Shown here: positions 9,480 to 24,360 of the stretch, piece after piece
How positions within the stretch are numbered: position 1 is the first letter of the stretch
Layout: every line of letters begins with the position of its first letter
DNA from: a virus
Lineage: Duplodnaviria; Caudoviricetes
Reading direction: 5' to 3' (one strand)
DNA: 24,360 nucleotides
IMG/VR virus record: IMGVR_UViG_3300017754_004644
Coordinates: 1-24,360 of that record
The notes under the pieces: generated by a model
What the model was told of the DNA's origin: nothing
The model's input: only the letters and a program-made list of their open reading frames with translations
Databases searched by the model: none
Made by a program: the position numbers and the translations under genes

Positions 9480-10660
9480 TGAACACACAATATTATAAAT
9501 TTGTTGTATCACCTGAAAACATAATAGGTGATTTAATAACGGTTCCTTTCACGGGTGAAACTGATATTACCACATATATTGATCCTTGTTGCCCAATAAC
9601 AGCACAAACAATATCGACATTAACAGGTACCACAGGATATTATTTACCTATGCGTGAAGTATTGTCGGGTGGAACGGCAGGGGATTCTATATTGACTGGA
9701 TTATCAGTCAATCTATTACTCGTCCAAAATACAGTTGATATTGGATATTACTCAGTTTTTGATGGAGCTATATTACAAAAAGAAGTAATGACTAACTTTT
9801 TGTTTAGTGCCGATACAATAACAGATCCATTAGGTTATTCATTTTATTTTTATAACACTTCCGACTTAGAGTTTGCTAAGTTTTTACAGCAAGTGAATTA
9901 TGTTGTTGATTGGGGTGATGGGTCACCACAACAACCAATATCAAGTCCGCTTCCTTTATTTCACCAATATCCTTCAGGTAATAATGTTTATACAATAACA
10001 TTAACTTCTTATTCTCCATGGGGTATATCTTATGTTGAAAAAGATGTTGTTGTACCATTTACTGGCACCACAATCCCAAACCCAAACGGAACTGCATTCT
10101 TTGTACCTGCAAGTGGAGGTTGGGCTGCGACACCTATAAGTTATGATTATATTTTTAGCGGTGACTCAAATACTAATATAAATGATTTCTATAGTTACAA
10201 TTACACTACAATACCTTTTATTATTACAGGATATACTGAATCATCAATAAATGAATTAGTACAATATGGTCCTGTTAATAGTTTAATTGGTGGTAAGTAT
10301 GTTTATGGTCCTGTCACAGGAAGTACGGGACAAGTTGGTGAATTTATTGGACCAGATCCTACAGGTATTTACACGGCATATACTTTAGGTAATATAACTT
10401 ACTATGATTACGAAGATTTTACAATTTATGTAGTCGATTCTTCTGGTTTTACACAAAATGATTTAATATTAAGTGCGATAACAAAAAACGAGGCTTTACT
10501 AAACGTAGTTGATGAACTACAAGTTTTATCTGACGTTTACATTGAAAGAGGTGTTTATGCACCTTTAGAAAGTGTAATGAGATTAGGTGAAGTTGATAAC
10601 GTCGGAGACTTAGAAAAATACGGATATGGATTTTTCAATGTAGAAAAAGTGGCTACATAA
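9479..10660 (+). CDS. Putative virion protein with PKD-like Ig domain (393 aa)
   Basis: YVVDWGDGS...FHQYPSGNNVYTITLTSYSPWG (nt ~9900-10050) matches the PKD WDFGDG...HxY...YxVxLT pattern; TAATG coupling at 9477-9481. Confidence 0.65.
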   Translation: MNTQYYKFVVSPENIIGDLITVPFTGETDITTYIDPCCPITAQTISTLTGTTGYYLPMREVLSGGTAGDSILTGLSVNLLLVQNTVDIGYYSVFDGAILQKEVMTNFLFSADTITDPLGYSFYFYNTSDLEFAKFLQQVNYVVDWGDGSPQQPISSPLPLFHQYPSGNNVYTITLTSYSPWGISYVEKDVVVPFTGTTIPNPNGTAFFVPASGGWAATPISYDYIFSGDSNTNINDFYSYNYTTIPFIITGYTESSINELVQYGPVNSLIGGKYVYGPVTGSTGQVGEFIGPDPTGIYTAYTLGNITYYDYEDFTIYVVDSSGFTQNDLILSAITKNEALLNVVDELQVLSDVYIERGVYAPLESVMRLGEVDNVGDLEKYGYGFFNVEKVAT

Positions 10661-10661
10661 C

Positions 10662-10668
10662 TATTTAT
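10662..10668 (+). promoter_or_regulatory. Putative late promoter TATTTAT
   Basis: AACTATTTATAAAAAAGA context nearly identical to 1101-1119; again 17 nt before the ATG (10686). Confidence 0.6.
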
Positions 10669-10685
10669 AAAAAAGATAAAAAAAT

Positions 10686-11594
10686 ATGGCAACAGGCAGT
10701 TACGGAACGGTAAGAGGATCAGATGTTAGTCCTGAGGACGTTGAAATAATTTTGACGTATACTCCAAGTAGAGACGACACTAATAATTTCATTTTAACAA
10801 CATTGAATGCTCAAGACGTTCTTAGACCTTATTTTCACAATTCAGACACTGGTGGTAATGCAAACGTGGAAATATTAGGTGGTTTATACAACTTAAAATT
10901 ACCGGCAAATCAATTTAATAAATTAGGTATTTATACCTTATTAATTAGACCTGCGGAAATAAGAACTGTGATTAATGATTGTGGTGTTTTGTCAGCATTA
11001 CCTAATGTTAAAGGAATTGTGGTTGATATAAATCAAGTACCTGTTGAATATAGAAATAAATTTGTTAATCAAGGTTTAACTGGTTTTAGAGTTGAGTATT
11101 TAAATCCTGATGGTACAAAAATACCTAATTTTTTCAGAATCATAACATCTTCTTTTTATTGTGAACCAGTTGTTCAGAATCTAACAAACACAATACAAAA
11201 ATCAATCAGATATAGATATGTTGATGGGGCGACAAATTTAATTTTTTGTACTCTGTCACCATCATCATCACCAACAAACAAACCAAACGCAACACCATAT
11301 ATTGGACAACCAAATCAAGACATTATTATAACAAACACTTATTTCAACCCGATCACAACTGAAATTGAAATAGTTGACCAAGATATCTCAACGTTGGCAA
11401 TTGCTCTTTATGGAAATCAAACTAAATCTATTGATGATGGAATTTACACAATTTACGACTCCAACAATAACATTTATAAACAATACAACCTTTATGAAAT
11501 TAAAGACCAATTTAATAATTTATTATATGAGGTAAGACAAGATAGAGGTACAAACATAGATTTTAGTAAAAGTTTTTCTAATATAACAGCATAA
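10686..11594 (+). CDS. Hypothetical phage structural (probably baseplate) protein (302 aa)
   Basis: Clean ORF behind a TATTTAT motif, coupled by TAATG to the gp7/gpI-like gene; no family recognised. Confidence 0.6.
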   Translation: MATGSYGTVRGSDVSPEDVEIILTYTPSRDDTNNFILTTLNAQDVLRPYFHNSDTGGNANVEILGGLYNLKLPANQFNKLGIYTLLIRPAEIRTVINDCGVLSALPNVKGIVVDINQVPVEYRNKFVNQGLTGFRVEYLNPDGTKIPNFFRIITSSFYCEPVVQNLTNTIQKSIRYRYVDGATNLIFCTLSPSSSPTNKPNATPYIGQPNQDIIITNTYFNPITTEIEIVDQDISTLAIALYGNQTKSIDDGIYTIYDSNNNIYKQYNLYEIKDQFNNLLYEVRQDRGTNIDFSKSFSNITA

Positions 11595-14584
11595 TGGCAA
11601 CACAAAAATTTACCTGTCCTCCCCAAAACGCAAGCGGCCAAGGAACGTTTTCTGACAATTTAGTTGGATTACAATTAGTTGGTGGTGGAGGATTTACGCA
11701 GGGAAATTTTGAATTCACAACCTCAATCTCAGAGAAACAAAATAGAACATTTAACATAGGAACATTTTCAGATCCAATCAACTTACAAAGTATGGATATT
11801 GAAAGTGTTGCAGAGGCTAGAGGGATATTAACAAGTAACTTAAGTGTATATCCTAATTATGATTTATCACAGGTAACTAATTTTACCGAATATGGATCTT
11901 TAAGTAAAAGACTCTCAACGTCAGTAACAAAAATTATAAACTATTTTCCTGCGGCTTTAGAAATTTCCCCTGTTAATAAAAAAATGTTAAATGTTGAAAC
12001 CGCAATAAATGCGGTTTATGATGTTATAGATAACGAGACAAGTTTTGATCTTAGAATCACGTCAATAAACAATCCTTTTGACATAGATTTTTCAGTTAGT
12101 GCTACAAGAAATATTGCATTAAGAGAAATACAAGTATCACCATTAAGAGATATGACCGTAGAATATAAAAAATATTCACTATTCATCGGTCAGACAGAAT
12201 ACCCCGTTAACTTTATAACTCCTACTAACGATTCATCAATATTATTTAATATAGTTGTTGAAGGAAATCCTTTTTCTGGAAACTCAATTTCTTATGATTA
12301 CTTAGTAATCAGACCTAATGATATAGAAGTTAATAGAGTATTCAAAGATAGTTTAGATCCTGTTGAGAATTTTCTTTTAAATAGAAATGTAAATCCAATT
12401 TATACATCGTCATTTAGAGTACCTAAAGAAACTGAATCAGGTAATTATGTATTCACAAGTCAATTTGCGACTTTTCCATTAAGCGGTGTTTGGAATTTAG
12501 ATATTGAGTCAAAATCTTTTGACAATTATTTGGAGAAATTAAGTTCTTATGGTATTAGTTTAGATGAATATAAAACAAATCTAATATCAAGATTTTTAAC
12601 TACTGCGGCTCTTAAAGAATTTGATACTCCTGATCAAAAATTTGAAAAGGTTTTACAAATATATGGTAGAAGTTTTGATGAAACAAAAACATTCATCAAC
12701 GCTTTAGCGAACATGAACAATGTTAACTACATTGTAACTAATGACATACCATCACAACTTTTGAAAAATTTGGCCGAGACCCTTGGTTGGAAAACAAATA
12801 TTTCACCAATTACAAATGAGATGTTGTTAGGTAGTGTTTTCTCACCAACAACAAACACTTATACTGGTTTATCTAAAGGACAAACACCTGAAGAACTTAA
12901 TTACCAATATTATAGAAATTTAATTTTAAATTCTGCGTATCTATTTAAATCAAAAGGAACTAGAAAATCGATTGAATGTCTTCTTAAATTAATAGGTGCT
13001 CCTGAAGCCCTTACTGAATTTAATGAGTATGTTTATGTTGCGGATCAAAGAATTAATATGAGTGATTTTGATCAACAGTATAGACAAATCACAGGAGGGA
13101 CCTTTACGCAACAATTTCCTTCTTTACAAACAAACAACATATTCTCAATCCAAGGAGTACAATATACCGGATTTACCACAAATAGTTTAACGGTAGATGT
13201 TACAACAACTAGAGATGATTATCCTGTCGATATTTTTGGTTGTCCACAAATGCCAACGGCAAGTGACACATATTTTTACCAAATAGGTGGTGGATGGTTT
13301 GAATCAACACCACAACATAGAATGCCAGCGGCTGTGAATATAACAAACAATGTTTTTACAGGAAACAACCCTGACTACCAAACAACCTTGTTACCCTTCA
13401 ATTACGGAGAAGAGTATTTACAAAGATATAGACAATTCCCGTACATGAATCTTGGGTATAGATTAAGAAAGATCCAAGACAACAAAAAAAGTTGGTATGA
13501 TGAACAAGGTATTTTAAGAGAAAGTTTTGACGCTGGTTTTAACGCATATTATACCGTTGGAGAAGAATGTTTAACCATTAATGTTAAAAACGTTGATATA
13601 TTCATGAATCCGGCACAAGGATTGGTTTATGACGTTTGGTCAATGTCTAGACAATATAATTTCCCAATACCTGAACAAGGTTTAAATTATGTACCACCAT
13701 CACCTTGTAACATACCAAATCCATACCCAAAAAGAGGAGGAATAGATTGGACTGAGATTATACCAAAACCAAAACAAAAAACTTTTTTTGAGTTTGCTCA
13801 AACTTTCTGGCATAATATGATTAATGTTAGAAATAGACAATTTATCACTGACGGTAAGACAGGTGGTTATCCTACTTTACAATCAATTTATTGGAAATAT
13901 TTAGAATCACAACAATTAGCCGGTATCCAAAACGATAATTTTACCTACCAAACTATGATCGATTACGTAAATGGTCTCGGAGATTATTGGATTAGATTAA
14001 TTGAACAAATGATACCTGCAACAACGATATGGACTACAGGGACAAAGTTAGAAAATTCAATTTTCCACAGACAAAAATTTGTTTGGAGAAGACAAACTGG
14101 ATGTAAATTTATTCCTGTTCCATGTAAACCATGTAGTATAATTACACAACTTTTTGTTTATGATTGTCCAGGTCAAAAAATTGAATGTGGTATATTCCCT
14201 TGGAATAACGACCCAACTGTGGTCTCATTTGGATATATTTTAAATCAAGTATTACAACAATACTATGCATCAAGTAATATTAATTGGGCCGATTGTTTAG
14301 GTACCACAATAATAGCCAATTGGTTTGTTGATTTAAGGTTAAACGGAAATCCTGTGGTCCAACAACAATTTTTGACGACTTATGGTGCGTTAAATGCACC
14401 GACTTCACAACAATGGTTAGTTGCTTTGGAGTCGGCATTAAGTAGTTTACAACTTAGTGGTTATAGTTATGATATTGATATAGATAATGAAACCGTAACG
14501 GTATTCAATAATAATTGCAATTCAACATTTGATGATTTTCAAATAAATGTCGGAATTGATTTCGAAGTTTTATGTAACGGGTAA
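11594..14584 (+). CDS. Baseplate wedge protein, T4 gp7 / P2 gpI (Tail_P2_I)-like (996 aa)
   Basis: DIPSQLLKNLAETLGW...YYRNLILNSAYLFKSKGTRKSIECLLKLIG (nt ~12740-13000) matches the gpI/gp7 pattern (P..L..LA..LGW...R..I......KGT..AI...L); lies in the same module as a gp6-like gene. Confidence 0.7.
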   Translation: MATQKFTCPPQNASGQGTFSDNLVGLQLVGGGGFTQGNFEFTTSISEKQNRTFNIGTFSDPINLQSMDIESVAEARGILTSNLSVYPNYDLSQVTNFTEYGSLSKRLSTSVTKIINYFPAALEISPVNKKMLNVETAINAVYDVIDNETSFDLRITSINNPFDIDFSVSATRNIALREIQVSPLRDMTVEYKKYSLFIGQTEYPVNFITPTNDSSILFNIVVEGNPFSGNSISYDYLVIRPNDIEVNRVFKDSLDPVENFLLNRNVNPIYTSSFRVPKETESGNYVFTSQFATFPLSGVWNLDIESKSFDNYLEKLSSYGISLDEYKTNLISRFLTTAALKEFDTPDQKFEKVLQIYGRSFDETKTFINALANMNNVNYIVTNDIPSQLLKNLAETLGWKTNISPITNEMLLGSVFSPTTNTYTGLSKGQTPEELNYQYYRNLILNSAYLFKSKGTRKSIECLLKLIGAPEALTEFNEYVYVADQRINMSDFDQQYRQITGGTFTQQFPSLQTNNIFSIQGVQYTGFTTNSLTVDVTTTRDDYPVDIFGCPQMPTASDTYFYQIGGGWFESTPQHRMPAAVNITNNVFTGNNPDYQTTLLPFNYGEEYLQRYRQFPYMNLGYRLRKIQDNKKSWYDEQGILRESFDAGFNAYYTVGEECLTINVKNVDIFMNPAQGLVYDVWSMSRQYNFPIPEQGLNYVPPSPCNIPNPYPKRGGIDWTEIIPKPKQKTFFEFAQTFWHNMINVRNRQFITDGKTGGYPTLQSIYWKYLESQQLAGIQNDNFTYQTMIDYVNGLGDYWIRLIEQMIPATTIWTTGTKLENSIFHRQKFVWRRQTGCKFIPVPCKPCSIITQLFVYDCPGQKIECGIFPWNNDPTVVSFGYILNQVLQQYYASSNINWADCLGTTIIANWFVDLRLNGNPVVQQQFLTTYGALNAPTSQQWLVALESALSSLQLSGYSYDIDIDNETVTVFNNNCNSTFDDFQINVGIDFEVLCNG

Positions 14585-16770
14585 TGGGGTACATTTTAAT
14601 ATATGATCTTACTTTTACTGGAGATTGTTCAAATACAAACTCGGGTGGTTTCTCTTTTAGTATAACAGGAGATAGTGGACCAACATGGTTGGTTTATGAT
14701 ATAACATCAGGTGGAACTATACCAACCTCAGCGGCAACGACATATTATGAAGTAACTGGATTGCCGGCAAATACATATTTTTTAGAAGTCCAAGATTCGG
14801 TAGATTCATTACCTGTAGTTATTAATATTTCTTCAGGTACTACAGTTTCTGTAATATCTGAAGACACGACATGTGGTTTTAACAATGGATCTATAACCGC
14901 ATCGACTCAATATGTATATGGTCAATCTTATTATTATTTATATGATTCATTAAATAATTTGATGTCCACTGGTACAACAAACGATTTGTATTTTGAATTT
15001 TCACCATTGAGTGCTGACACATATTATGTGGTTGCTAATGACGGTGGTGGATGTACAGGAAGCACTGCAACCGTTTTGATACAATCCTCAACAACTTTTG
15101 ATTTTGGTTATTACGTTGTTGCGGACTCAAGTTGTTATAATGAAGGTAGTGGTAAAATATTTATTACAGGTTTAACACCGACTTCCGCTTATACGGTTAC
15201 TTGGTTGAGTGACGTTGGAGGGCAGAGTGGATTTACAGTAACTGGTTTGACAACAGGTATCTATCAAGTTGAAGTTGAGGATATAAATGGATGTATTGCA
15301 ACCAAATCAATAAATGTCCCTGATGTACCAATTATTGGTTTGGGTGCGTTTTTTGTAACGCCAAGTAGTGCTTGTTTTATTGACGATGCTGAAGTTGAGG
15401 TTGTAATTACAGGTGGTACCGCACCTTTTTACTACAGTGGAACATCAGGACAGGTTGGAATTTCTTTCTCAACCTCATACACTTTTACGGGTGTTTCGGC
15501 AGGGTATTTTGGTGTTAGTGTTACAGATGCTGGACTTTGTAATTTTACAGCACAAGCATCCGTATTAAACCCTAACACTTTTTATCAAGTTGATATAAAC
15601 ACAACAAACTCTAATTGTTCTTCAAACGACGGGACAATACAGATAATTGTAGATGAAGGTAACCCACCACTATCAACATTTAATTATTCAGTTTCAGGAA
15701 CCTCAGGTTATTATCAAACTGTAAATTTTGGAAATCCAATACAAACTTTTAACGGTTTAGGATCGGGAGATTACATCATAACAGTATCCGACGATAATGG
15801 GTGTACATACACAGGAACCACAACAATAACAAATGTTGCATCTTATTCAATAACGGCAAACACAACAGGAACTACATGCGGATTCAATAACGGTATTGTG
15901 GAAATAATTGTTTCAACCGGAGGAACATATCCATATTCTTTCACTCTTGTTGGACCTGTTGGTAATTCTGAAATTAGAAATAATAATCTTGGTATTTTTG
16001 AAAATTTACCATCAGGAAACTATGATTTAATTGTATCAGACAGTAGTGATCCTACTTGTAACGAAGTGTCCAATGTTTATATTTCACCATCAAGTGGTGT
16101 TTATTTTGATTTTTATGTTAATCAACCTGTATTTGGTGGTGATGGAAGAATAAGTGTTTATATTACAAGAGGTACTCCACCTTTCACATTAAGTTGGAGT
16201 GGTGATGTTGGTACACAAACAGGATTAGTAATAACTGGTGCGTCATCAGGACAATATAGTTTAGAAATTACTGATAGTTTAGGATGTGGGTTAAAGAAAG
16301 ATGTTATTTTATTTGGTACAAAAAGCGTAACTAACTACAGTATATTCACTAGTTGTGAACAGACCTTCCAAAGTGTTAATACCGTAACGAGAAGAGGTAT
16401 TCGACAAATGTATTGGGAAGGATTTTCAGACCTAACAAGTGGTGATACAAATTGTATAATCACTTCTGCCGATTTCATTATTTTAGCAACTGTTGATGGA
16501 GAAACAAAAGAAGAAGTATTTTATAATTCTTCAGGTTTTACAGACTATCCTTCAGATACACTATGGTCTAACACTTTAATTGATATGTTGAATAGTTTTG
16601 CAGGAATCTCAAATGTTGTTGTAGATGTGGACAATAATAAAGTGACAATTACCAGTGATTGTACAAAACTACCAAAAAATTGTGATTTAGAAATTACAAA
16701 TTCTTTGGATAATACACCAATAGTTGTTGATTTAAAAATTGAATACGACATTGCATGTGTTAGTTGTTAA
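14584..16770 (+). CDS. SprB-repeat (Ig-like adhesin) Cys-rich putative virion fibre/appendage protein (728 aa)
   Basis: About six tandem modules of the type C...G.I....GGT.P(Y/F).(Y/W)...(F)xGLxxGxYxVxVxDxxGC, e.g. TGLTTGIYQVEVEDINGC, ITGGTAPFYYS...GVSAGYFGVSVTDAGLC, NGLGSGDYIITVSDDNGC, GGTYPYSF...ENLPSGNYDLIVSD, RGTPPFTLSW...GASSGQYSLEITDSLGC. No signal peptide or T9SS tail apparent. Confidence 0.75.
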   Translation: MGYILIYDLTFTGDCSNTNSGGFSFSITGDSGPTWLVYDITSGGTIPTSAATTYYEVTGLPANTYFLEVQDSVDSLPVVINISSGTTVSVISEDTTCGFNNGSITASTQYVYGQSYYYLYDSLNNLMSTGTTNDLYFEFSPLSADTYYVVANDGGGCTGSTATVLIQSSTTFDFGYYVVADSSCYNEGSGKIFITGLTPTSAYTVTWLSDVGGQSGFTVTGLTTGIYQVEVEDINGCIATKSINVPDVPIIGLGAFFVTPSSACFIDDAEVEVVITGGTAPFYYSGTSGQVGISFSTSYTFTGVSAGYFGVSVTDAGLCNFTAQASVLNPNTFYQVDINTTNSNCSSNDGTIQIIVDEGNPPLSTFNYSVSGTSGYYQTVNFGNPIQTFNGLGSGDYIITVSDDNGCTYTGTTTITNVASYSITANTTGTTCGFNNGIVEIIVSTGGTYPYSFTLVGPVGNSEIRNNNLGIFENLPSGNYDLIVSDSSDPTCNEVSNVYISPSSGVYFDFYVNQPVFGGDGRISVYITRGTPPFTLSWSGDVGTQTGLVITGASSGQYSLEITDSLGCGLKKDVILFGTKSVTNYSIFTSCEQTFQSVNTVTRRGIRQMYWEGFSDLTSGDTNCIITSADFIILATVDGETKEEVFYNSSGFTDYPSDTLWSNTLIDMLNSFAGISNVVVDVDNNKVTITSDCTKLPKNCDLEITNSLDNTPIVVDLKIEYDIACVSC

Positions 16771-16773
16771 AAT

Positions 16774-16989
16774 ATGAATGAAATAACTATAAATTCGGTT
16801 AGTGGTTTTTCTTTACCTATAAGTGCTTACACATGTGATGTATATGGTAATCAATGTGTATATGCCGGTACAATAATAACAATACCTGAAACCATTACAC
16901 TAAGTTCTCAATTTAATATGGCACCCGCTTTAGGTTTAAAATTAAACGACGGAACTTGCGAAACTTTCGAAATTATTGATTGTTCTTAG
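16774..16989 (+). CDS. Small Cys-containing hypothetical protein (71 aa)
   Basis: Starts 3 nt after the upstream stop and fills the gap; beta-rich with 4 Cys, composition like neighbouring structural proteins. Confidence 0.65.
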   Translation: MNEITINSVSGFSLPISAYTCDVYGNQCVYAGTIITIPETITLSSQFNMAPALGLKLNDGTCETFEIIDCS

Positions 16990-17017
16990 ATCTTATTTTT
17001 TAATTCCTCACGTTAAA

Positions 17018-17045
17018 TTCACTTAAAAAAATATGTTAGTATAAT
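17018..17045 (+). promoter_or_regulatory. Putative sigma70-like (early/middle) promoter TTCACT-N16-TATAAT
   Basis: TTCACT 17018-17023, 16-nt spacer, perfect TATAAT 17040-17045, 6 nt before ATG 17052; the same architecture occurs before the RuvC-like gene. Confidence 0.5.
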
Positions 17046-17051
17046 TCTATC

Positions 17052-18032
17052 ATGGATTCTCTTCTTTTTGTTAGTGCTCAACCTGACGTACCGTATTTTC
17101 ATTGGCAGGTAAAATTATATGTTCACAATTTTATAGAAAAAGGAATCAATCCAAAAAACATCCATGTAATATACTCAATACCCGAAGGTAAAAAAGAACC
17201 ATCAGACGAATCAATAGAAATTTTAAAAAATGGAATAAACTTACATTTCTTCAAAGACGAAAGAGATAATAAACATTATATCCCAAGCATTAAACCATAC
17301 TTAATTAGTAAATGGATTGAAAAAAACAGTGATCATGGGAATATGTTTTTTTTACACGATGCGGACATAATGTTTAATAAATTACCAAATTTTGAAAAAT
17401 TAATAAAAGATGATGTAATTTATCTATCTAATACTAAAAGTTATATTGGATATGAATATTTAAAAAAATGTTCAAAAAATTATGAAATAAGATTCGACCA
17501 TTGTAAAAATGAAGAACTAATTGATTCTATGTGTGATATTATTGGAATTCAAAAAAGTAAAATTATTGAAAATGAAGATAATTCAGGTGGAGGACAATAT
17601 ATTGTAAAAAATACAAGTCATAAAGTTTGGGATAAAATCTATAAAGACTCAAATTCTTTATACTCAACACTAATAAAATTCCAAAGAAAGTACCCAATCA
17701 ATCAAGGGCAGATCCAATTTTGGACCGCAGAGATGTGGTCACTTTTGTGGAATCTTTGGGTTGAAAACAAACAAACATTAATCACTGATGAATTGGATTT
17801 TTGTTGGGCAACAGATACTCTTGAAGAGTATGAAAAAAACCCAATCCTTCATATGGCCGGAGTGACAGAAAACATTAAACACGATAAATTTTATAAAGGT
17901 GATTTTATAGATAATGACCCAATTGAAATTTTAAAAAATGAACCTAATTATTTTAATTACATCAATCCTAATAGCTCAACAACAAAATATATTGAGAACA
18001 TTAAGGATTATTTAAAAAAAAGAGGTTTTTGA
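17052..18032 (+). CDS. GT-A fold glycosyltransferase resembling peptidyl-serine O-galactosyltransferase (SGT1/GT96) and hydroxyproline O-arabinosyltransferase (HPAT/GT95) (326 aa)
   Basis: Motifs in family order: YFHWQ (aa 15-19; SGT1 YFDWQ), YIPSIKP (aa 76-82; SGT1 YPAINKP), FFLHDADIMF with DxD at aa 103-105 (SGT1 VILDADMI), GGGQY, WTAEMW (aa 224-229; SGT1 WISEMY), late ILHMAG. Lys-rich soluble composition, unlike its neighbours. Reference motifs recalled from memory. Confidence 0.7.
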   Translation: MDSLLFVSAQPDVPYFHWQVKLYVHNFIEKGINPKNIHVIYSIPEGKKEPSDESIEILKNGINLHFFKDERDNKHYIPSIKPYLISKWIEKNSDHGNMFFLHDADIMFNKLPNFEKLIKDDVIYLSNTKSYIGYEYLKKCSKNYEIRFDHCKNEELIDSMCDIIGIQKSKIIENEDNSGGGQYIVKNTSHKVWDKIYKDSNSLYSTLIKFQRKYPINQGQIQFWTAEMWSLLWNLWVENKQTLITDELDFCWATDTLEEYEKNPILHMAGVTENIKHDKFYKGDFIDNDPIEILKNEPNYFNYINPNSSTTKYIENIKDYLKKRGF

Positions 18033-18033
18033 T

Positions 18034-18040
18034 TATTTAT
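18034..18040 (+). promoter_or_regulatory. Putative late promoter TATTTAT
   Basis: TATTTATA in the 15-nt gap between the GT stop and ATG 18048 (7 nt upstream). Confidence 0.55.
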
Positions 18041-18047
18041 AATAAGA

Positions 18048-20087
18048 ATGGAAAATTGTTTTGTATTATATTCTTGTGATGGGTCTTACGCACCAATTAT
18101 CTCAAACAATACGGATTTAAGTGCGTATACTAATTCGTTTGTTTCCATAATTATTACCGCACCATATATTGTACCATCAACTTGTTTTTATGTACTTTCT
18201 TTGGGTGTTATTGATTGTGATGTTACATATGATATTATAGTTGATCCTGATATACCATGTGATTGCGGCACCCTGTGTTATTTTGTTGACATTGAAGGAG
18301 AATATTATGACACAATTTATGTTAGAAATAACAATGAGATAGTAGTTGACCAATTCCAAACAGGAATTACCGCAAACTTTTGTTCTAAAATATACCCTGT
18401 TTTTGATTATACAGGAACAACTAAGGTGAAAATAATGGGAACCTGTGTTGGAGATGTTTGTCCACCAACAATCCCTTCCGTAAAAAGAACTAATGAATGT
18501 GATGTCACTACAATATTTCCAATGTATGTTGAGTGTTTAACACAAGCACCGACAAATCAATATACTTTTGATGGATCAGTACAGTTATTAGTTACCGGAG
18601 GAACACCACCGTATACAATTTTCTGGGAGATTGGTAGTTACGCACCTGCACTTACAAACTTAGGTGCTGGTGATTATAACGCACAAATTACCGATTATTA
18701 TGGAGATTTTGTGATTAATACTACTTGTGTTTTAACTGCGGAAACGGTAACCTATTCTGCCATGTGTTTTGTTTTAGAGAGTAAAACCTCAACACAATAT
18801 TTGACAATACAACCGTCCGGTGTTAAAAACTCAAAACCATATTACGTAATTTCAAATGGATTGATTTCTGTAGGGATAGTATTTTGGGATGGACAAACAA
18901 ATACTTGGGTATTCTGTCAAACTTTTGATTGTAACCCAAATCAATTATATGCTTATTTGGATAATAACGATGGACTTTACCCAACAACAGACACCTTACT
19001 AATGTATGAATGGGAAGATGGGACAAATTTAAATTATACTTTTAGTGAATCATATGTAGGACCTTGTAGTCTACCTATAATACCAAAAACATATCCTAAT
19101 TTATGTTTATTTTTACTTGTAAGAAGTTCCGGTGAAGATCCTGTTGAACAAATACAAATAGATTTAGGTTATAACTCTATTGTTAATGGACAACCAAGTT
19201 GGGAGAGTAGTGATAATCAATATTACCTTTATTGGAATACAGGAGCAACCCCAAATCAATGGGTTATAACAGGATATTCAAATAATAGTCAAATAGTTAA
19301 TTATAATGCTGCAGAACCACCAATAAGTAATTGGCAAAATTTTGGAGATGCTACATTATACACCGTTTCAGTCTTGAGTGGAAGTTGTAGTGCTGATAGT
19401 TTAGTTGGATTTAACGCAGTCGTTAATGATGCGGTCTGTGATAATTCAGGTACAATAATGATTACCGCTTATGGAGGGACACCACCATACCAATATTCTA
19501 TCAACTATGGTCAAACATATCAAAATTCACCGTATTTCCAAAATTTGGCACCAGGCAATTATGGGGTTAGAGTTATTGATAGTAATGGTGTATCTGAACA
19601 AAATTTGATTTCGGTTTTATCAACACCACCTGTCACATATCAATTAGGATTTGCATATACAATTGGTGGGGCGTTCCAAATAAATGCGCCAACGTTACCT
19701 GCGGGAATTACAATAACATTTGATTTAGTACATACCGGGGTACTAACTTATTATCCGAACACTTTAATAGTTCAGCCAACCTATAATAATTTTACAACAA
19801 TAACGGGAGTTGGACTTATGACACCATACAATAACTTGAATAGTTTTTCTTTTGTAAGTGGTCCTTGTAGTTTAACTTCACCAATTTATAAAAATCAAGA
19901 ATACAGAGTTTATAAAAATACACTTACTATTGGAAGTAACGGTGTGATAAGCGGATCAACAACAAATACTATAATAAACGCACCGTCAGGTCCTTGTACG
20001 TTTGCTGGTGGTACTTATACTTTACAATTGGCCAATCTAAGAGTGAATGGTTGTGATTGTTGTAGTGTTGAGGTAATAGGATTTTAA
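18048..20087 (+). CDS. Cys-rich SprB-repeat putative virion protein (679 aa)
   Basis: Two SprB-like modules (DGSVQLLVTGGTPPYTIFW...LTNLGAGDYNAQITD, nt ~18570-18700; SGTIMITAYGGTPPYQYS...FQNLAPGNYGVRVIDSNG, nt ~19445-19590) flanking two N(G/S)xPx(Y/W)...W...W modules; Cys-rich N-terminus. Confidence 0.7.
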   Translation: MENCFVLYSCDGSYAPIISNNTDLSAYTNSFVSIIITAPYIVPSTCFYVLSLGVIDCDVTYDIIVDPDIPCDCGTLCYFVDIEGEYYDTIYVRNNNEIVVDQFQTGITANFCSKIYPVFDYTGTTKVKIMGTCVGDVCPPTIPSVKRTNECDVTTIFPMYVECLTQAPTNQYTFDGSVQLLVTGGTPPYTIFWEIGSYAPALTNLGAGDYNAQITDYYGDFVINTTCVLTAETVTYSAMCFVLESKTSTQYLTIQPSGVKNSKPYYVISNGLISVGIVFWDGQTNTWVFCQTFDCNPNQLYAYLDNNDGLYPTTDTLLMYEWEDGTNLNYTFSESYVGPCSLPIIPKTYPNLCLFLLVRSSGEDPVEQIQIDLGYNSIVNGQPSWESSDNQYYLYWNTGATPNQWVITGYSNNSQIVNYNAAEPPISNWQNFGDATLYTVSVLSGSCSADSLVGFNAVVNDAVCDNSGTIMITAYGGTPPYQYSINYGQTYQNSPYFQNLAPGNYGVRVIDSNGVSEQNLISVLSTPPVTYQLGFAYTIGGAFQINAPTLPAGITITFDLVHTGVLTYYPNTLIVQPTYNNFTTITGVGLMTPYNNLNSFSFVSGPCSLTSPIYKNQEYRVYKNTLTIGSNGVISGSTTNTIINAPSGPCTFAGGTYTLQLANLRVNGCDCCSVEVIGF

Positions 20088-20096
20088 TAAAACTAA

Positions 20097-20103
20097 TATT
20101 TAT
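20097..20103 (+). promoter_or_regulatory. Putative late promoter TATTTAT
   Basis: TATTTATA in the 22-nt intergenic gap, 6 nt before ATG 20110. Confidence 0.55.
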
Positions 20104-20109
20104 AACTAA

Positions 20110-22611
20110 ATGGGTTACATAATAAAAAATACTTCAGGTCTTGTGAACACAAGAATAACCGACACCGGAAGACAAAAATTGTCTCAAGGTAGATTTAATG
20201 TTGCTTATTTCCAAGTTGGAGACAGTGAGGTATCATATGACAAATTACCTTTAACATACAATCAAGCAAATAGTTTTGTGTTAGAACCTGAATTTAATGG
20301 ACAAAATACTGCAGGTGTCCCACAATCGAACAAACAATATGTTAAATATCCTTATTTGGTTGATGCCACTGAAACAAATACTTATGGTATACCATTTATG
20401 GATTCTTCTGTTGAGCCTGTTTATAACAGGGCTGCGATGAGAGGTTTTTTTAGTGCGAACACAATTAATAATCCGATAGATTGGAAAGTAATGACAGGTG
20501 ATTATTATGTTGTAAGTGCAAATTTTATGACTCAAATGAGTTTATTGGACGGATCAAATCAATTAACACTAACACAATTAAGTTGTAACCCTCAAAACAC
20601 AAACAAACCAAGTGTTGGAGATTTAATTACAATTTTTTACGATGGTAATGGTAAAAACGATTGTGTTTGTTATGACTTACCTACACCAACTCCGACAGCT
20701 TCACCGACAAATTCACCTACAACAACACTTACACCAACGCCAACGTCAAGTGATGTTTGTGCTTCACCAACCCCAACACCAACACCAACTAAAACACCAT
20801 GTTTATCACCAACCCCAATACCTGTTTGTCCACCAACACCATTACCTGAGTGTTTGATGAACATGAACAGTTGTTATTTAATGTTAACATATAGGATAAT
20901 TGATGTTTGTGAAAATGTTTTAACACTTGATAGAAACCTACCTGACTATAGAAGTTTTTCACCTGATTGTTTTGCAAGAGTGGTAATTTACCCACCAAGT
21001 ATGACCGTACAATATGATAGTTATACACCAAGACCACATTGGGCTGACAACGTTATTGATTTTGAGTCTATTTGTGATATAGACCAGTTCAATGTTAAGA
21101 TATGGAATATGAACATTCCTTGGACTGAAAATCCTGCTGGGTTAATATCAACATTATACGAAGGGTATACTCAATTTGGATCCATAAATTATATTGGTAG
21201 TAAAGAATATTTTGGGTATAACTCATCTAAAGGACAAACAGACACTGATCCACCTTATTATTATAATTCTTTTGATGAGAAGATTGTGGTTAAACCTGAA
21301 GAACAAAAGGCAATCGCAATAGTACATTACACAAATCAAACGATAGATTTCTTTTATGGTGAAAAATTTGCTTTGGAACCATATGATAATACAAATCCTC
21401 AAGATACAACAGGACAAGCAAGAAACTTCAAAATACACATACCATGGTTAATGTGGCATAAAAACCCACAATGTTGTTTTGGTCAAACTTTTTGGGTAGA
21501 TCCTCCAGGATTTGATAATAAAAATCTATTTCAAGTACAATATCTTAAATCAAGTATTAATCAAGACATGAATCAACCTGGTTTAAGATACTATAATTTA
21601 TGGGATACAAACGCAAATTCAAATGGACTACCAAGTAGAGTTGGAAAAGTTTTCCCTGATTCAAAAATAATAATTTTTGATGACGAAGAAATTGTTGCGG
21701 CACTATCATATAAATCTAACAGAAATTTTACACTACCTGCACCTCAAATATCTTTAATCACACCTAATGTTTGTGACACCACAACATCAAGTAATGGTAT
21801 ATTGACTGGAAGTACTGAGGCTATGTACATTACATATGTTTTAGAAAATGATTATGGATTTACAAATTGGTTACATTGTAATTATTACTCTTATTTGGTT
21901 GGTAATAACAACGATTGTAATCCTGACGTTAGTAAAAACGTTAGTGTAAGATTTGGTTCTGAATTTCCTTGTTTAAAACAACCAGGGTATGCACCAATTA
22001 CAACGACAACTACAACAAGTCCTTTAACGACTACAACAACAACTATACCTGTCACAACTACCACAACAACATATTGTCCGTCATGTGATATATCAACAGG
22101 ATTTTGGGCAACAAACTTTAAAATATTGGCTCAAAAAGTTGTTGCAGGACAAAGACCTGACCCAACAAAATGGAAACTTATTGATTTCACATCTCAAATA
22201 CAAAATAGTTTTATTAACGGATACGTTACCGAATCATCACTTACAGGAACTACATTTATTGTTAACCCTCAAAACTACAATTCGGCACCTTATTACAATT
22301 TAAATAATTACATTGATTTAGTACCTGTTGGAACAACAGGAAGAAAGTTAAATTTTGGTGATGAATACTATTTTTATGGTAACATTGAAACCGACATCCA
22401 AGCGACAATTTATGAAATGAAATATAAAATAAATTTAAGTCAGACTGAATTCTTAAAATCACAAAACCCAAGTTGGGTTAACGGAACACCATCCTACATA
22501 ACTGAAATTGGGTTGTTTGATGAAAATAAAGATTTATTAGTCATTTCAAAATTACAATCACCAACCTTAAGACAGGGAATACAACAATATGTGGTGAAGC
22601 TTGATCTTTAA
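20110..22611 (+). CDS. Baseplate/tail-collar (DUF3751 / P2 gpH N-terminal-like) protein with Pro/Thr and poly-Thr inserts (833 aa)
   Basis: N-terminal ITDTGRQKLSQGRFNVAYFQVGDSE and C-terminal YITEIGLFDENKDLLVISKL resemble the first and last motifs of tail-collar fibre-attachment domains (T..G...LA...VGDG; I.EIGLFD..G.L.A). Confidence 0.55.
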   Translation: MGYIIKNTSGLVNTRITDTGRQKLSQGRFNVAYFQVGDSEVSYDKLPLTYNQANSFVLEPEFNGQNTAGVPQSNKQYVKYPYLVDATETNTYGIPFMDSSVEPVYNRAAMRGFFSANTINNPIDWKVMTGDYYVVSANFMTQMSLLDGSNQLTLTQLSCNPQNTNKPSVGDLITIFYDGNGKNDCVCYDLPTPTPTASPTNSPTTTLTPTPTSSDVCASPTPTPTPTKTPCLSPTPIPVCPPTPLPECLMNMNSCYLMLTYRIIDVCENVLTLDRNLPDYRSFSPDCFARVVIYPPSMTVQYDSYTPRPHWADNVIDFESICDIDQFNVKIWNMNIPWTENPAGLISTLYEGYTQFGSINYIGSKEYFGYNSSKGQTDTDPPYYYNSFDEKIVVKPEEQKAIAIVHYTNQTIDFFYGEKFALEPYDNTNPQDTTGQARNFKIHIPWLMWHKNPQCCFGQTFWVDPPGFDNKNLFQVQYLKSSINQDMNQPGLRYYNLWDTNANSNGLPSRVGKVFPDSKIIIFDDEEIVAALSYKSNRNFTLPAPQISLITPNVCDTTTSSNGILTGSTEAMYITYVLENDYGFTNWLHCNYYSYLVGNNNDCNPDVSKNVSVRFGSEFPCLKQPGYAPITTTTTTSPLTTTTTTIPVTTTTTTYCPSCDISTGFWATNFKILAQKVVAGQRPDPTKWKLIDFTSQIQNSFINGYVTESSLTGTTFIVNPQNYNSAPYYNLNNYIDLVPVGTTGRKLNFGDEYYFYGNIETDIQATIYEMKYKINLSQTEFLKSQNPSWVNGTPSYITEIGLFDENKDLLVISKLQSPTLRQGIQQYVVKLDL
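20680..20847 (+). repeat. Coding low-complexity (Pro-Thr)n tract punctuated by Cys
   Basis: Encodes PTPTPTASPTNSPTTTLTPTPTSSDVCASPTPTPTPTKTPCLSPTPIPVCPPTPLP; ACACCA-like hexamer periodicity with synonymous variation. Confidence 0.9.
21991..22071 (+). repeat. Three tandem 27-nt units encoding x-P-hydrophobic-Thr6
   Basis: API-TTTTTT / SPL-TTTTTT / IPV-TTTTTT, using all four Thr codons. Confidence 0.9.
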
Positions 22612-22614
22612 AAC

Positions 22615-22642
22615 TTCACGTTTTTATAACTTTTATTATTTT
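22615..22642 (+). promoter_or_regulatory. Putative early/middle promoter TTCACG-N16-TATTTT
   Basis: Same TTCAC-N17-TAT spacing as at 17018-17045; no TATTTAT in this gap. Confidence 0.4.
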
Positions 22643-22657
22643 AAATAAAAAAACTTT

Positions 22658-23263
22658 ATGTCAAAAAATTTAAAAAACTCACCAAAAGTTTTAGGGTTAG
22701 ACATTTCAACCAAAACCATAGGTTGGGCATTGTTCGATATTAAAACTCAACAATTATTAGAATTAACCCATGTTTCACCAAGACCAAAAGTTGATAAGGA
22801 AGAAGATAAATTAAAAGAACTACTTCTTAAGTCTGAAATTTTTGCTGAAAAACTTAAAGATTATAAAAACTTGGGGATCGTTAGAGTCGTAATTGAAGAA
22901 CCATTACTTAATTCGAATAACGTTTATACGATTCAAACATTGTTGAGATTCAACAGTTTTGTATTTAAAGAGATTTATAATATATTAGGTATTGTACCTG
23001 AATTCATATCAACATATAACTCAAGAAAATTTGCATTTCCTGAGCTAGTTCAAGAGAATGACAAAAAGAAGTTTGTTTTATTTGGGGGATTACCAAAAGA
23101 TATTGATAAGAAAATGATTATTTGGGAAAAAGTGGCAAAAAAAGAACCTCAAATAAAATGGCTTTATACAAGAAACAATACACTTAAAAAAGAAAATTTT
23201 GACCAAACAGATGCTTACACATGTGCTCTTGGTTTTATGAAATCAAAAGGTATTTGGGACTAA
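22658..23263 (+). CDS. ruvC: RuvC-like Holliday junction resolvase (phage type, 201 aa)
   Basis: RNase H-fold catalytic motifs VLGLDISTKTIGWA (Asp), VVIEE (Glu) and C-terminal FDQTDAYTCA (DxxD), plus a basic SRK...KK segment; size typical of stand-alone RuvC. Confidence 0.8.
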   Translation: MSKNLKNSPKVLGLDISTKTIGWALFDIKTQQLLELTHVSPRPKVDKEEDKLKELLLKSEIFAEKLKDYKNLGIVRVVIEEPLLNSNNVYTIQTLLRFNSFVFKEIYNILGIVPEFISTYNSRKFAFPELVQENDKKKFVLFGGLPKDIDKKMIIWEKVAKKEPQIKWLYTRNNTLKKENFDQTDAYTCALGFMKSKGIWD

Positions 23264-23287
23264 TATCGTTTAATATACCGATAATTG

Positions 23288-23321
23288 AAAATATCGTCTT
23301 TTTAGACGATATTTTTTTTTT
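23288..23321. terminator. Rho-independent terminator between convergent genes, probably bidirectional
   Basis: Perfect 12-bp stem AAAATATCGTCT (23288-23299), TTTT loop, AGACGATATTTT (23304-23315), with a T run continuing to 23321; the A-tract on the left gives a shorter U-tail for the minus strand. Confidence 0.85.
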
Positions 23322-24360
23322 AACATAATCCTATTGGATCAATTACAATATTTGCTGATAATGTTGTTGGTGCGACTGATGCACATATTATAACTGATGA
23401 ATACATTGGAATATTTATCGCGGTATTACCTTCACAATTTGTGTAATCAAATTTTTTGGAAGATATACTATTGTTTGTAATTCTATATTGATAAAGTACA
23501 CAAGGTGAAGGAGTTGGTGTTGGTGTAGGGGTTGGTGATGGGGAAGGACAAGGTACCGATAAAAGTGTTGTGTTGAAACCGGATAATTCCTCAATACAAT
23601 CTGTTGAAGAATTGATGGTGTTAACATAATCCCATTCTAAAATAGACCCAACAGGAATATCACTATCAATATTTAAATAACAACCAACCAAGTCAGTTGT
23701 TAATTCTTTACAAACCCATCTACCATTTAAAGAATCCCAATAAATTTGATAAGTATATTGAGGGTATGCAGGAAAAGTCCAAGTATATGACAATTTCCCA
23801 TTAATAAATGAACCAGGGTTAACATTAATATTACCACATTCAGAGTTAACAACTAAACATTCTAAAATTGGTTCTGGTGTTGGTGGAATACAATCAATAC
23901 AACCACCTTGATCATAAGGACCAACTAAATCTACAATCTGTACGTTATCAATACCACTTATGTTTTCAACTAAACCATCAAATACCGCACAAATACCAAT
24001 ACCATTAATATATGTACTATAAACATAACCTTGACTCAGAGTATTTCCTGACGGATCAAATAAGTTTTGAGTTGTGTAGTAATCTAAACCTGTGAAACAA
24101 TCTTTGAATTTTTTGCTATTAGCACAAGTCATAATTTCATTGATAGTATTGAATATTACGGTACCACTATAAACACAAGGTCTGGTAACATCAGGCGTTG
24201 GTGTTGGGGTTGGTGTTTGTGATGCCGATGGTAGTGGTGTTTTTTTAAGTCCTCCCACATCGGCAAATACACCACCACACGGATTGGATGTTGTTGGTGT
24301 AGGAGTTGGTGTAGGTGTTGGAGTTGCGGTTGGTGTTAATGACGGTGTTGGTGTTACCAA
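23320..24360 (-). CDS. Pro/Thr-rich, Cys-rich putative virion protein (5'-truncated at window end)
   Basis: Frame open to the window edge (the TTG start in the track is only the first codon in view); three (PT)n tracts, many Cys, one NGKxSY...IYWD...W module; stop TAA abuts the terminator. Confidence 0.75.
   Translation of the reverse strand: MVTPTPSLTPTATPTPTPTPTPTTSNPCGGVFADVGGLKKTPLPSASQTPTPTPTPDVTRPCVYSGTVIFNTINEIMTCANSKKFKDCFTGLDYYTTQNLFDPSGNTLSQGYVYSTYINGIGICAVFDGLVENISGIDNVQIVDLVGPYDQGGCIDCIPPTPEPILECLVVNSECGNINVNPGSFINGKLSYTWTFPAYPQYTYQIYWDSLNGRWVCKELTTDLVGCYLNIDSDIPVGSILEWDYVNTINSSTDCIEELSGFNTTLLSVPCPSPSPTPTPTPTPSPCVLYQYRITNNSISSKKFDYTNCEGNTAINIPMYSSVIICASVAPTTLSANIVIDPIGLC
23501..23550 (-). 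repeat. Cys-bracketed (Pro-Ser/Thr)n tract
   Basis: Encodes C-PSPSPTPTPTPTPSP-C. Confidence 0.85.
24191..24360 (-). repeat. Two (Pro-Thr)n tracts
   Basis: Encodes VTPTPSLTPTATPTPTPTPTPTT (24291-24360) and TPLPSASQTPTPTPTP (24191-24240). Confidence 0.85.

Follow-up and report, generated by a model that had tools for sequence, protein, structure and literature searches.

A phage gene of the phrog_4417 family, predicted to encode a glycosyltransferase, co-occurs with threonine runs in tail and capsid proteins

The tail module and its predicted glycosyltransferase gene

The window analysed here is the whole of IMG/VR virus record IMGVR_UViG_3300017754_004644 (Duplodnaviria; Caudoviricetes), a linear viral contig 24,360 bases long with a GC content of 27-37% and an estimated completeness of ~8% (CheckV). 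It contains a tail module that starts with a baseplate wedge gene (phrog_6, E 2e-16) and further comprises six unnamed genes, genes for two SprB-repeat proteins, a 326-residue protein and an 833-residue protein, a RuvC-like gene and a truncated open reading frame (ORF) on the minus strand. This report concerns the 326-residue protein, a predicted glycosyltransferase of the phrog_4417 family, and its relation to runs of threonine (Thr) in the 833-residue protein and in other phage proteins. The features that bear on it are as follows (PT, Pro/Thr).

17052..18032, + strand: predicted GT-A glycosyltransferase, 326 aa, soluble; full-length match to phrog_4417 (E 3.6e-66)
17358..17366, + strand: DxD motif D103-A-D105; D103 in 104/105 and D105 in 105/105 aligned sequences
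17721..17735, + strand: WTAEM motif (W224-M228); W224 in 105/105, position 227 D or E in 90/105
17850..17861, + strand: HxxG motif (H267); H267 in 104/105 sequences
17018..17045, + strand: promoter-like TTCACT-N16-TATAAT 5′ of the enzyme gene
20110..22611, + strand: conserved tail-module protein, 833 aa, presumed virion protein and best candidate substrate
22000..22071, + strand: three Thr6 runs (residues 631-636, 640-645 and 649-654) in a variable, Cys-flanked insertion of the 833-residue protein; predicted acceptor site
20680..20790, + strand: Pro/Thr repeat insertion of the 833-residue protein (residues 191-227), retained in enzyme-less relatives
23320..24360, - strand: 5′-truncated ORF (346 aa, interrupted where the window stops); contains (PT)n and PSPSPT repeats

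An earlier interpretation of this DNA, hereafter the sequence-only reading, had proposed that the phage decorates Pro/Thr/Ser stalks of its own proteins with sugars. The ORF, its motifs and the tracts lie where that reading placed them, and the enzyme gene is indeed located between two adhesin-like (SprB) genes, with a 71-residue ORF intervening. The (PT)n, PSPSPT and Thr6 tracts that it had assigned to two nearby virion-type proteins are present as well, but ‘virion-type’ follows from position: scans against Pfam, PHROGs and NCBIfam gave no structural-family match for the 833-residue protein or the 346-residue ORF, and the two SprB proteins of the window carry neither Thr nor PT tracts. No match to the 833-residue protein was found among cultured phages, and in the Atlas it matched only unnamed clusters.

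Members of phrog_4417 (VOG1322) are labelled ‘prophage pi2 protein 34’ or hypothetical, and the family has no function assigned in PHROGs, Pfam or NCBIfam. The 326-residue protein itself had no match in Pfam (E 0.1) or NCBIfam, and its sequence gave only chance matches in the PDB; 1,243 relatives were recovered among 3,915 candidates, and 827 among representatives at 50% identity. It carries the motifs YFHWQ (residues 15-19), YIPSIKP (76-82), HDAD (102-105, including D103 and D105) and WTAEM (224-228). In an alignment of 105 sequences, D103, D105, W224, M228, W229 and H267 are conserved in 104-105, which defines a conserved DxD and a conserved WxxD/EMW motif. Residue 227 is likely to be the acceptor-side acid, and H267 is presumably the third metal ligand, by inference from GT-A enzymes. 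The protein has no membrane anchor; its hydropathy peaks at 0.42 over 19 residues, and the domain begins at residue 5.

A model computed from the 105-sequence alignment (pLDDT 97.6) predicts a glycosyltransferase of the GT-A fold. All the top rows listed by Foldseek against the PDB were GT-A glycosyltransferases, at TM-scores of about 0.4-0.46 and identities of 6-11%. VIA-align placed glycogenin first (Z 15.1; root-mean-square deviation 3.6, 230 residues aligned), followed by Skp1 galactosyltransferase (Z 14.2), LgtC (14.1) and UGGT (14.0). The likeness to these GT8, GT24 and GT6 enzymes, at Z of 14-15, includes the DxD motif and a C-terminal His, whereas the low identity and TM-score and the lack of any PDB sequence match set the phage protein apart; the shared fold says nothing of donor or acceptor. 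The best viral models by fold were an uncharacterised phage protein (TM 0.87) and Orf49 of Lactobacillus phage LP65 (TM 0.71).

The promoter-like sequence ahead of the enzyme gene differs from the motif TATTTATA, a candidate late promoter of this phage clade, which precedes structural genes of the window at 18034-18041 and 20097-20104. Among relatives, TT[CG]ACTT lies upstream of 26 of 61 enzyme genes, 0 of 96 SprB2 genes and 1 of 83 genes of the 833-residue family, and TATTTATA lies upstream of the 833-residue gene in 41 of 83 cases. A TTCACT-N16-TATAAT-like motif precedes the RuvC gene in 7 of 78 loci.

Co-occurrence of the enzyme gene with threonine runs

A pool of 258 loci was assembled from the phage's own clade, 80 of them fetched by the enzyme and the others by the 833-residue protein; 248 contained the marker. 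Dereplication at 95% left 108 loci, from which 24 of unknown gene state and 2 with short upstream DNA were subtracted, giving 82. Runs of at least six Thr residues were present in 56 of the 65 loci with the enzyme gene and in none of the 17 without it (p 2e-11, uncorrected for kinship). With a cut-off of at least five residues the counts were 60/65 versus 3/17, and with at least seven, 30/65 versus 0/17. PT repeats behaved otherwise: (PT)3 or longer occurred in 63 of 65 loci with the gene and in 17 of 17 without it (p 1.0). Six of the gene-less loci come from records at least 90% complete in which the enzyme had no match, and 11 from partial records in which it is missing both at its usual place and from the record; a Thr run of at least six residues was found in 0/6 of the near-complete records, in which PT repeats do occur. 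On the tree of the clade the gene state changes seven times, and four independent pairs gave a mean of 3.8 in the same direction and none in the opposite one (p 0.125).

The two kinds of tract part company within a single orthologue too. At the Thr site of the 833-residue protein, 36 of the 52 gene-carrying rows but 0 of the 15 gene-less ones have a run of at least five residues (one mis-scored row, L200, was dropped); none of 20 rows of unknown state has a run. The PT insertion of the same protein survives in gene-less relatives such as L341, L342, L354 and L378. Because Thr runs track the gene while (PT)n occurs regardless, the acceptor is likely to be poly-Thr and not extensin-like repeats. 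The runs are not products of DNA slippage and are kept at the protein level, since their codons are mixed (single-codon runs, 0 of 192 runs of at least six residues).

These results divide the earlier proposal, in which Ser, Thr or hydroxyproline of extensin-like (PT)n/PSPSPT stalks is glycosylated in the manner of plant SGT1 and HPAT. Its core, decoration of the phage's own stalks, agrees with the co-occurrence of the gene with Thr-rich virion proteins in matched controls, as does the association across phage genomes that it anticipated, as far as Thr tracts are concerned; neither is supported for the Pro/Thr repeats. A remote homology to PF23452 speaks for the stalk version, and three loci (L194, L220 and L235) carry the gene and PT repeats without a long Thr run, so PT may be a secondary acceptor. 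On the other side stand the indifferent PT counts, the PT insertion that stays where gene and Thr insertion are both gone, and the tags of Bacillota phages described below, which are Thr runs with little Pro. Among the hydroxylases that might accompany such an acceptor, the one family searched, PF13640 (2OG-Fe(II) oxygenase), was present in 1 of 3 near-complete carriers and 1 of 2 non-carriers, and its lack in the other two carriers counts rather against this version. We regard this version as the least probable of the explanations discussed here. As the enzyme's partner, (PT)n repeats were rejected on account of their presence in all 17 gene-less loci and of the retention of the PT insertion after gene loss.

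The PT repeats may be plain linkers or acceptors of another system. In gene-less relatives (L316, L317 and L319, from G011, G018 and G009), clusters of GT9, GT4, GT34, GT2, FkbM methyltransferase, acetyltransferase and DegT-like genes adjoin PT-rich fibre-like genes, and these clusters may form a further glycosylation system directed at the PT repeats.

An unlinked gene gave a concordant result. In the tail sheath protein (phrog_23), whose gene lies ~47 kb away from the enzyme gene in G023, 5 of 10 carriers have a Thr run of at least five residues, as against 0 of 12 non-carriers (p 0.0096). Two of these 12 are apparent duplicates, and six further sheaths, duplicates or of unknown state and none with a run, were excluded. 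In G061 (L342, L427), a relative whose complete 257-kb genome has inverted terminal repeats but no enzyme gene, the sheath has PT repeats at the place of the carriers' Thr run. Loci L416 and L417 have Thr7 runs and lack the gene locally, but whole-record search recovered it; L416 also encodes the 833-residue protein as two tandem paralogues (L416:6743-11431). G008 (270 kb, with PT repeats and no gene) and G003 are apparent counter-examples whose contigs stop where the gene usually sits, and they were scored as unknown.

A second, independent matched set was gathered by the major tail core of phage phiFL1A and not by the enzyme. Among its 27 loci of phiFL-like siphophages, C-terminal Thr tags are present on both tail and capsid proteins in 12 of 12 with the gene (8 of these carriers are near-identical), and the tail tag is present in 0 of 15 without it; of the capsids of these 15 loci, 13 were readable and none was tagged. 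The enzyme had no match in the whole records of the 15 gene-less loci, six of them at least 90% complete, although the positive control matched. The tree has four changes, three of them forced by starred branches, and all three independent pairs agree (p 0.25).

By tblastn (E 1e-3) the gene was found in 77 of 50,697 GenBank phage records, with hosts named as Lactobacillus (23), Enterococcus (21), Staphylococcus (11), Lactococcus (8), Clostridium (3) and five others, six records being unnamed. Thr tracts lay beside the gene in seven of the seven regions that were read. In phiFL1A, nattely, VB-SauS-SA2, phiCTP1 and iLp84 the proteins bearing them are annotated as head, portal, protease or tail proteins; in Bacchae and MA9V-3 they are hypothetical. 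Because some cultured carriers have Thr tracts on prohead proteases and on a portal protein (L456:6044-7222, L457:4868-5977 and L459:1434-3023), the tags are not confined to outer-surface proteins. The major tail gene of Staphylococcus phage VB-SauS-SA2 (L457:9111-9924) ends in a Thr run that is overlapped by an ORF in another frame encoding nearly all Thr/Ser, which suggests a longer, frameshifted tail protein.

Cultured carriers also bear on the idea that the acceptor is not a virion protein but phage DNA, or host surface polymers modified for exclusion, with the Thr runs as hitchhikers or binding sites. Phage glycosyltransferases that modify DNA or serotype are well known, according to the text available of PMC12619734, and the enzyme gene has a non-late promoter-like motif of its own. 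Phages VPE25 and VFW carry the gene and have glucosylated DNA (PMC4999554, as far as its text was available); the same text assigns that modification to a different gene, a T4-like beta-glucosyltransferase. The gene considered here bears instead the annotation ‘prophage pi2 protein 34’, and its copy in the relative nattely sits in the head module. Since the enzyme also lacks a membrane anchor, and Thr tags on unlinked genes follow it, we give this explanation only a slight probability.

The remaining genes of the module are listed here.

14584..16770, + strand: SprB-repeat protein, 728 aa, without tract in this window; SprB repeat 26.7 bits, below the cut-off of 28
16774..16989, + strand: 71-aa ORF between the first SprB gene and the enzyme gene; conserved in many relatives
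18048..20087, + strand: SprB-repeat protein, 679 aa, without tract in this window; SprB repeat 33.9 bits, above the cut-off of 28
22658..23263, + strand: RuvC-like resolvase (phrog_159, E 8e-8), a syntenic neighbour outside the proposed system

Homologues of the 679-residue SprB protein have Thr runs of six or more in 25 enzyme-carrying loci, and homologues of the truncated minus-strand ORF often have Thr runs too (18 loci). In several lineages (L010, L037, L042, L050, L065, L072, L242 and L261), the segment that runs from the PT-rich ORF to RuvC has been inverted with respect to the baseplate genes. Complete relatives of the phage measure 257-326 kb and have sheath, sigma-70 and DnaJ genes. 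In gene content and size, on which alone the comparison is based, they resemble the moraphages of PMC12619734, described in its available text as freshwater phages of 200-307 kb with a contractile tail, a sigma factor, in some cases DnaJ, several putative glycosyltransferases and predicted Bacteroidota hosts. The words ‘proline’, ‘SprB’ and ‘HPAT’ are absent from the main text of that paper, which assigns no substrate to a glycosyltransferase. A host among the Bacteroidota is suggested for the present phage by the moraphage description, by its SprB repeats and by the homologue that Chryseobacterium phage MA9V-3 carries. DNA nearly identical to the window occurs in 20 sequencing runs, contributed by 14 studies, whose labels name a freshwater, lake, plankton or aquatic metagenome or simply a metagenome; no RNA run is listed among them, and the best-matching run may be the one from which the record came.

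Kinship of the family and the nature of its acceptor

The sequence-only reading took the order of the motifs as a mark of GT95 (HPAT) and GT96 (SGT1), which are related families (PMC8012813, in the text available). The motif set proved not to be diagnostic: besides the lack of a Pfam match, the 326-residue protein misses the PF23452 gathering cut-off of 23.9 bits, and 2 of 105 family members reach E 0.09 or worse. A PF23452 search of the phage's own record found no match but is uninformative, because the positive control was equally silent. The kinship is nevertheless real, if remote. A hidden Markov model of the family matches two Acidimicrobiales proteins (E 6e-7 and 8.5e-6) that both exceed the PF23452 cut-off; PF23452 is found in 10% of the members of the family's Atlas cluster; and a profile-profile comparison with 46 bacterial PF23452-type proteins aligned 261 columns (probability score 76.6, E 2.1e-5), with the WQ, DxD, WxxDM, H and K motifs lining up. 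Some of the nearest bacterial PF23452 proteins are fused to PqqD. No plant or algal HPAT or SGT1 came up when bacterial PF23452 members served as protein queries, and the comparison is thus bacterial only. The structure search that the earlier reading called for supported a GT-A fold with GT8 and GT24 enzymes as best solved matches, but no HPAT or SGT1 structure was among the matches listed, which does not exclude kinship. We therefore do not class the protein as a member of these families, although it may act like them.

The likeness to the plant enzymes consists in this whole-domain homology through bacterial PF23452 and in a presumed peptide-hydroxyl acceptor. The differences are plain: HPATs are Golgi type II membrane proteins that act on hydroxyproline, and SGT1 acts on extensin serine (PMC8012813, likewise), whereas the phage protein is soluble and tracks Thr runs.

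Bacterial relatives provided further contexts. Among loci from species genomes (the best 80 of 134), 48 encode the single-domain form, and 38 of these are near a Thr run of at least five residues, mostly in prophage-like gene order. The other 32 encode longer, fused forms; none is near such a run, and 17 lie beside a peptidase-C39-type exporter motif. Chromosomal homologues of Bacteroidota (Chitinophaga, Pedobacter and Sphingobacterium), mostly of 530-670 residues with a second domain, sit in clusters for peptides that are made on the ribosome and modified after translation (RiPPs), with the enzyme at ~10000 in each locus (L098, L112, L120, L121, L124, L129, L146, L154, L157 and L159). In nine scanned loci the neighbours are bacteriocin-type exporters, HlyD, radical SAM/SPASM and grasp-with-spasm proteins and class I lanthipeptide precursors; matches over the cut-off were grasp-with-spasm in L121 and L129 and class I lanthipeptide precursors in L120, L124 and L146. 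This RiPP-cluster context points to peptide acceptors, and a peptide acceptor is plausible wherever the context of the family is readable. A candidate precursor (L098:6182-6376) has a Thr/Pro-rich C-terminal tail. The enzyme domain is fused to GT2, GT7 and GT60-like domains; in Acidimicrobiia (L092:5214-6086 and 9980-13021; L094; L117) it forms part of a 1,000-residue fusion with F5/8 and GT60-like (PF11397) domains, and in L092 and L094 a separate PF23452 gene lies 4 kb from the fusion gene.

The choice of acceptor can be read in another way, in which the enzyme extends a glycan on Thr runs already primed by a host or another phage enzyme, bare peptide not being the acceptor. The top solved matches, from GT8, GT24 and GT6 (UGGT, XXYLT1, LgtC, LARGE1 and ABO), mostly use sugar acceptors, as that view would have it. 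Yet the tags vanish when the enzyme gene alone is missing, they span hosts from Bacillota to Bacteroidota, each of which would need a priming enzyme, and the HPAT-family kinship suggests peptide acceptors. No GT2 or GT4 gene was found in five small phage records with the gene (0/5), and none of phiFL1A's 61 features is annotated as a glycosyltransferase; these results favour a role as initiator. Extension alone is thus unlikely in our estimate. It is very unlikely that the runs receive something other than a plain sugar, namely a sugar or polyol phosphate that a nucleotide donor supplies. GT-A-like phosphotransferases do feature further down among the fold matches (GNPT, Z 9.8; CpsY, Z 9.4), and the sequence does not reveal donor specificity, but true glycosyltransferases rank 4-5 Z units above them, and the fusions of the family involve glycosyltransferase domains.

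Proposed glycosylation of virion proteins and its significance

Taken together, the findings make it likely that the Thr runs of virion proteins are O-glycosylated in the cytoplasm by this enzyme, with a nucleotide sugar of the host as donor. In this phage the three Thr6 runs of the 833-residue protein are the most likely substrate. The enzyme would be made in the cytoplasm, perhaps before the structural genes are expressed, a timing we infer because TT[CG]ACTT precedes the enzyme gene and TATTTATA the 833-residue gene. It would bind a nucleotide sugar from the host through the DxD motif and a metal, and pass the sugar to the hydroxyl groups of unstructured Thr runs borne by capsid, tail, sheath and fibre proteins, possibly by the retaining mechanism of its GT8, GT24 and GT6 fold neighbours. 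It may serve as initiator, being the sole recognisable glycosyltransferase in small phiFL-like genomes, and in jumbo phages other phage glycosyltransferases could lengthen the glycan. The likeliest benefit would be a hydrated shield against proteases, against adsorption to the wrong surface or, in animal-associated phages, against antibodies.

Several points weigh against this proposal. Nine of the 65 carrier loci have no run of six (five have no run of five), and three of the 17 non-carriers have a run of five; L385 and L395 have Thr7 inside PT repeats in records 61% and 37% complete, and the gene was not found in them. An ORF of 155-159 residues 3′ of RuvC starts with Met and six Thr in records both with and without a detected enzyme (L190:15185-15661, L400:16303-16779, L406 and L412). 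The run-length cut-off was picked after the data had been viewed (five, six and seven were tried), the independent pairs are too few per set for a significant sign test (p 0.125 in the own clade, 0.25 in the phiFL-like set), and 11 of the 17 loci counted as gene-less belong to partial records, for which the score reflects the gene's absence from its usual place. Jumbo phages bear many other glycosyltransferases irrespective of the 326-residue enzyme; GT2, GT4 and GT9 genes occur in near-complete relatives with or without it (4/5 records each; G061 has none). Most solved neighbours of the fold transfer sugar to sugar and not to protein. The 833-residue protein is without structural annotation and presumed to be a virion protein by its position, and the glycosylation is predicted from genes, co-occurrence and a model, as are the sugar, the donor and the activity.

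Virion O-glycosylation has a precedent. In mycobacteriophages, phage-encoded glycosyltransferases O-glycosylate capsid and tail tube proteins at their C-termini (Freeman et al. 2023, as reported in the available text of PMC12619734, PMC11600133 and PMC11652166). The phiFL-like phages are similar in bearing Thr tags at capsid and tail C-termini, and a transferase gene together with capsid and tail acceptor tails in one phage was found in these relatives, with the sheath in the own clade. Cluster O mycobacteriophages, in the accounts available, have three tandem transferases, whereas here one gene tracks the tags; and their glycans have been measured, whereas the present system is known from genes and a predicted fold, in phages of Bacillota and probably Bacteroidota. 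No Mycobacterium phage is among the 77 records matched by tblastn, and no profile comparison with the mycobacteriophage enzymes was made. In the full-text literature, a coverage that mostly leaves out subscription journals, we found no paper that deals with the phrog_4417 family, with Thr-tagged phage capsids or with RiPP enzymes resembling HPAT. What is new here is the separation of Thr runs from PT repeats within one clade and one orthologue, together with the RiPP context.

Tentatively, and with somewhat less than even confidence, we suggest a wider picture in which phrog_4417 by itself makes up a portable cassette for tag-directed O-glycosylation. This soluble prokaryotic sister of plant HPAT and SGT1 would initiate on any Thr run; phages of hosts from two phyla would use it to coat their capsids, tails and sheaths, and Bacteroidota would glycosylate RiPPs with it. 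The RiPP-linked branch predicts glycosylated lanthipeptides, graspetides and radical-SAM peptides, an unassigned class of peptides. Glycans weaken antibody neutralisation of mycobacteriophages (PMC11652166, in the text available). If the proposed modification is correct, virion glycosylation would reach far past mycobacteriophages, and a function would be assigned to a family that lacks annotation and has members in 77 GenBank phage records and in hundreds of jumbo-phage contigs. Cultured carriers of the gene make the proposal testable at once, and glycoengineering would gain a simple tool in a soluble enzyme paired with a short Thr tag.

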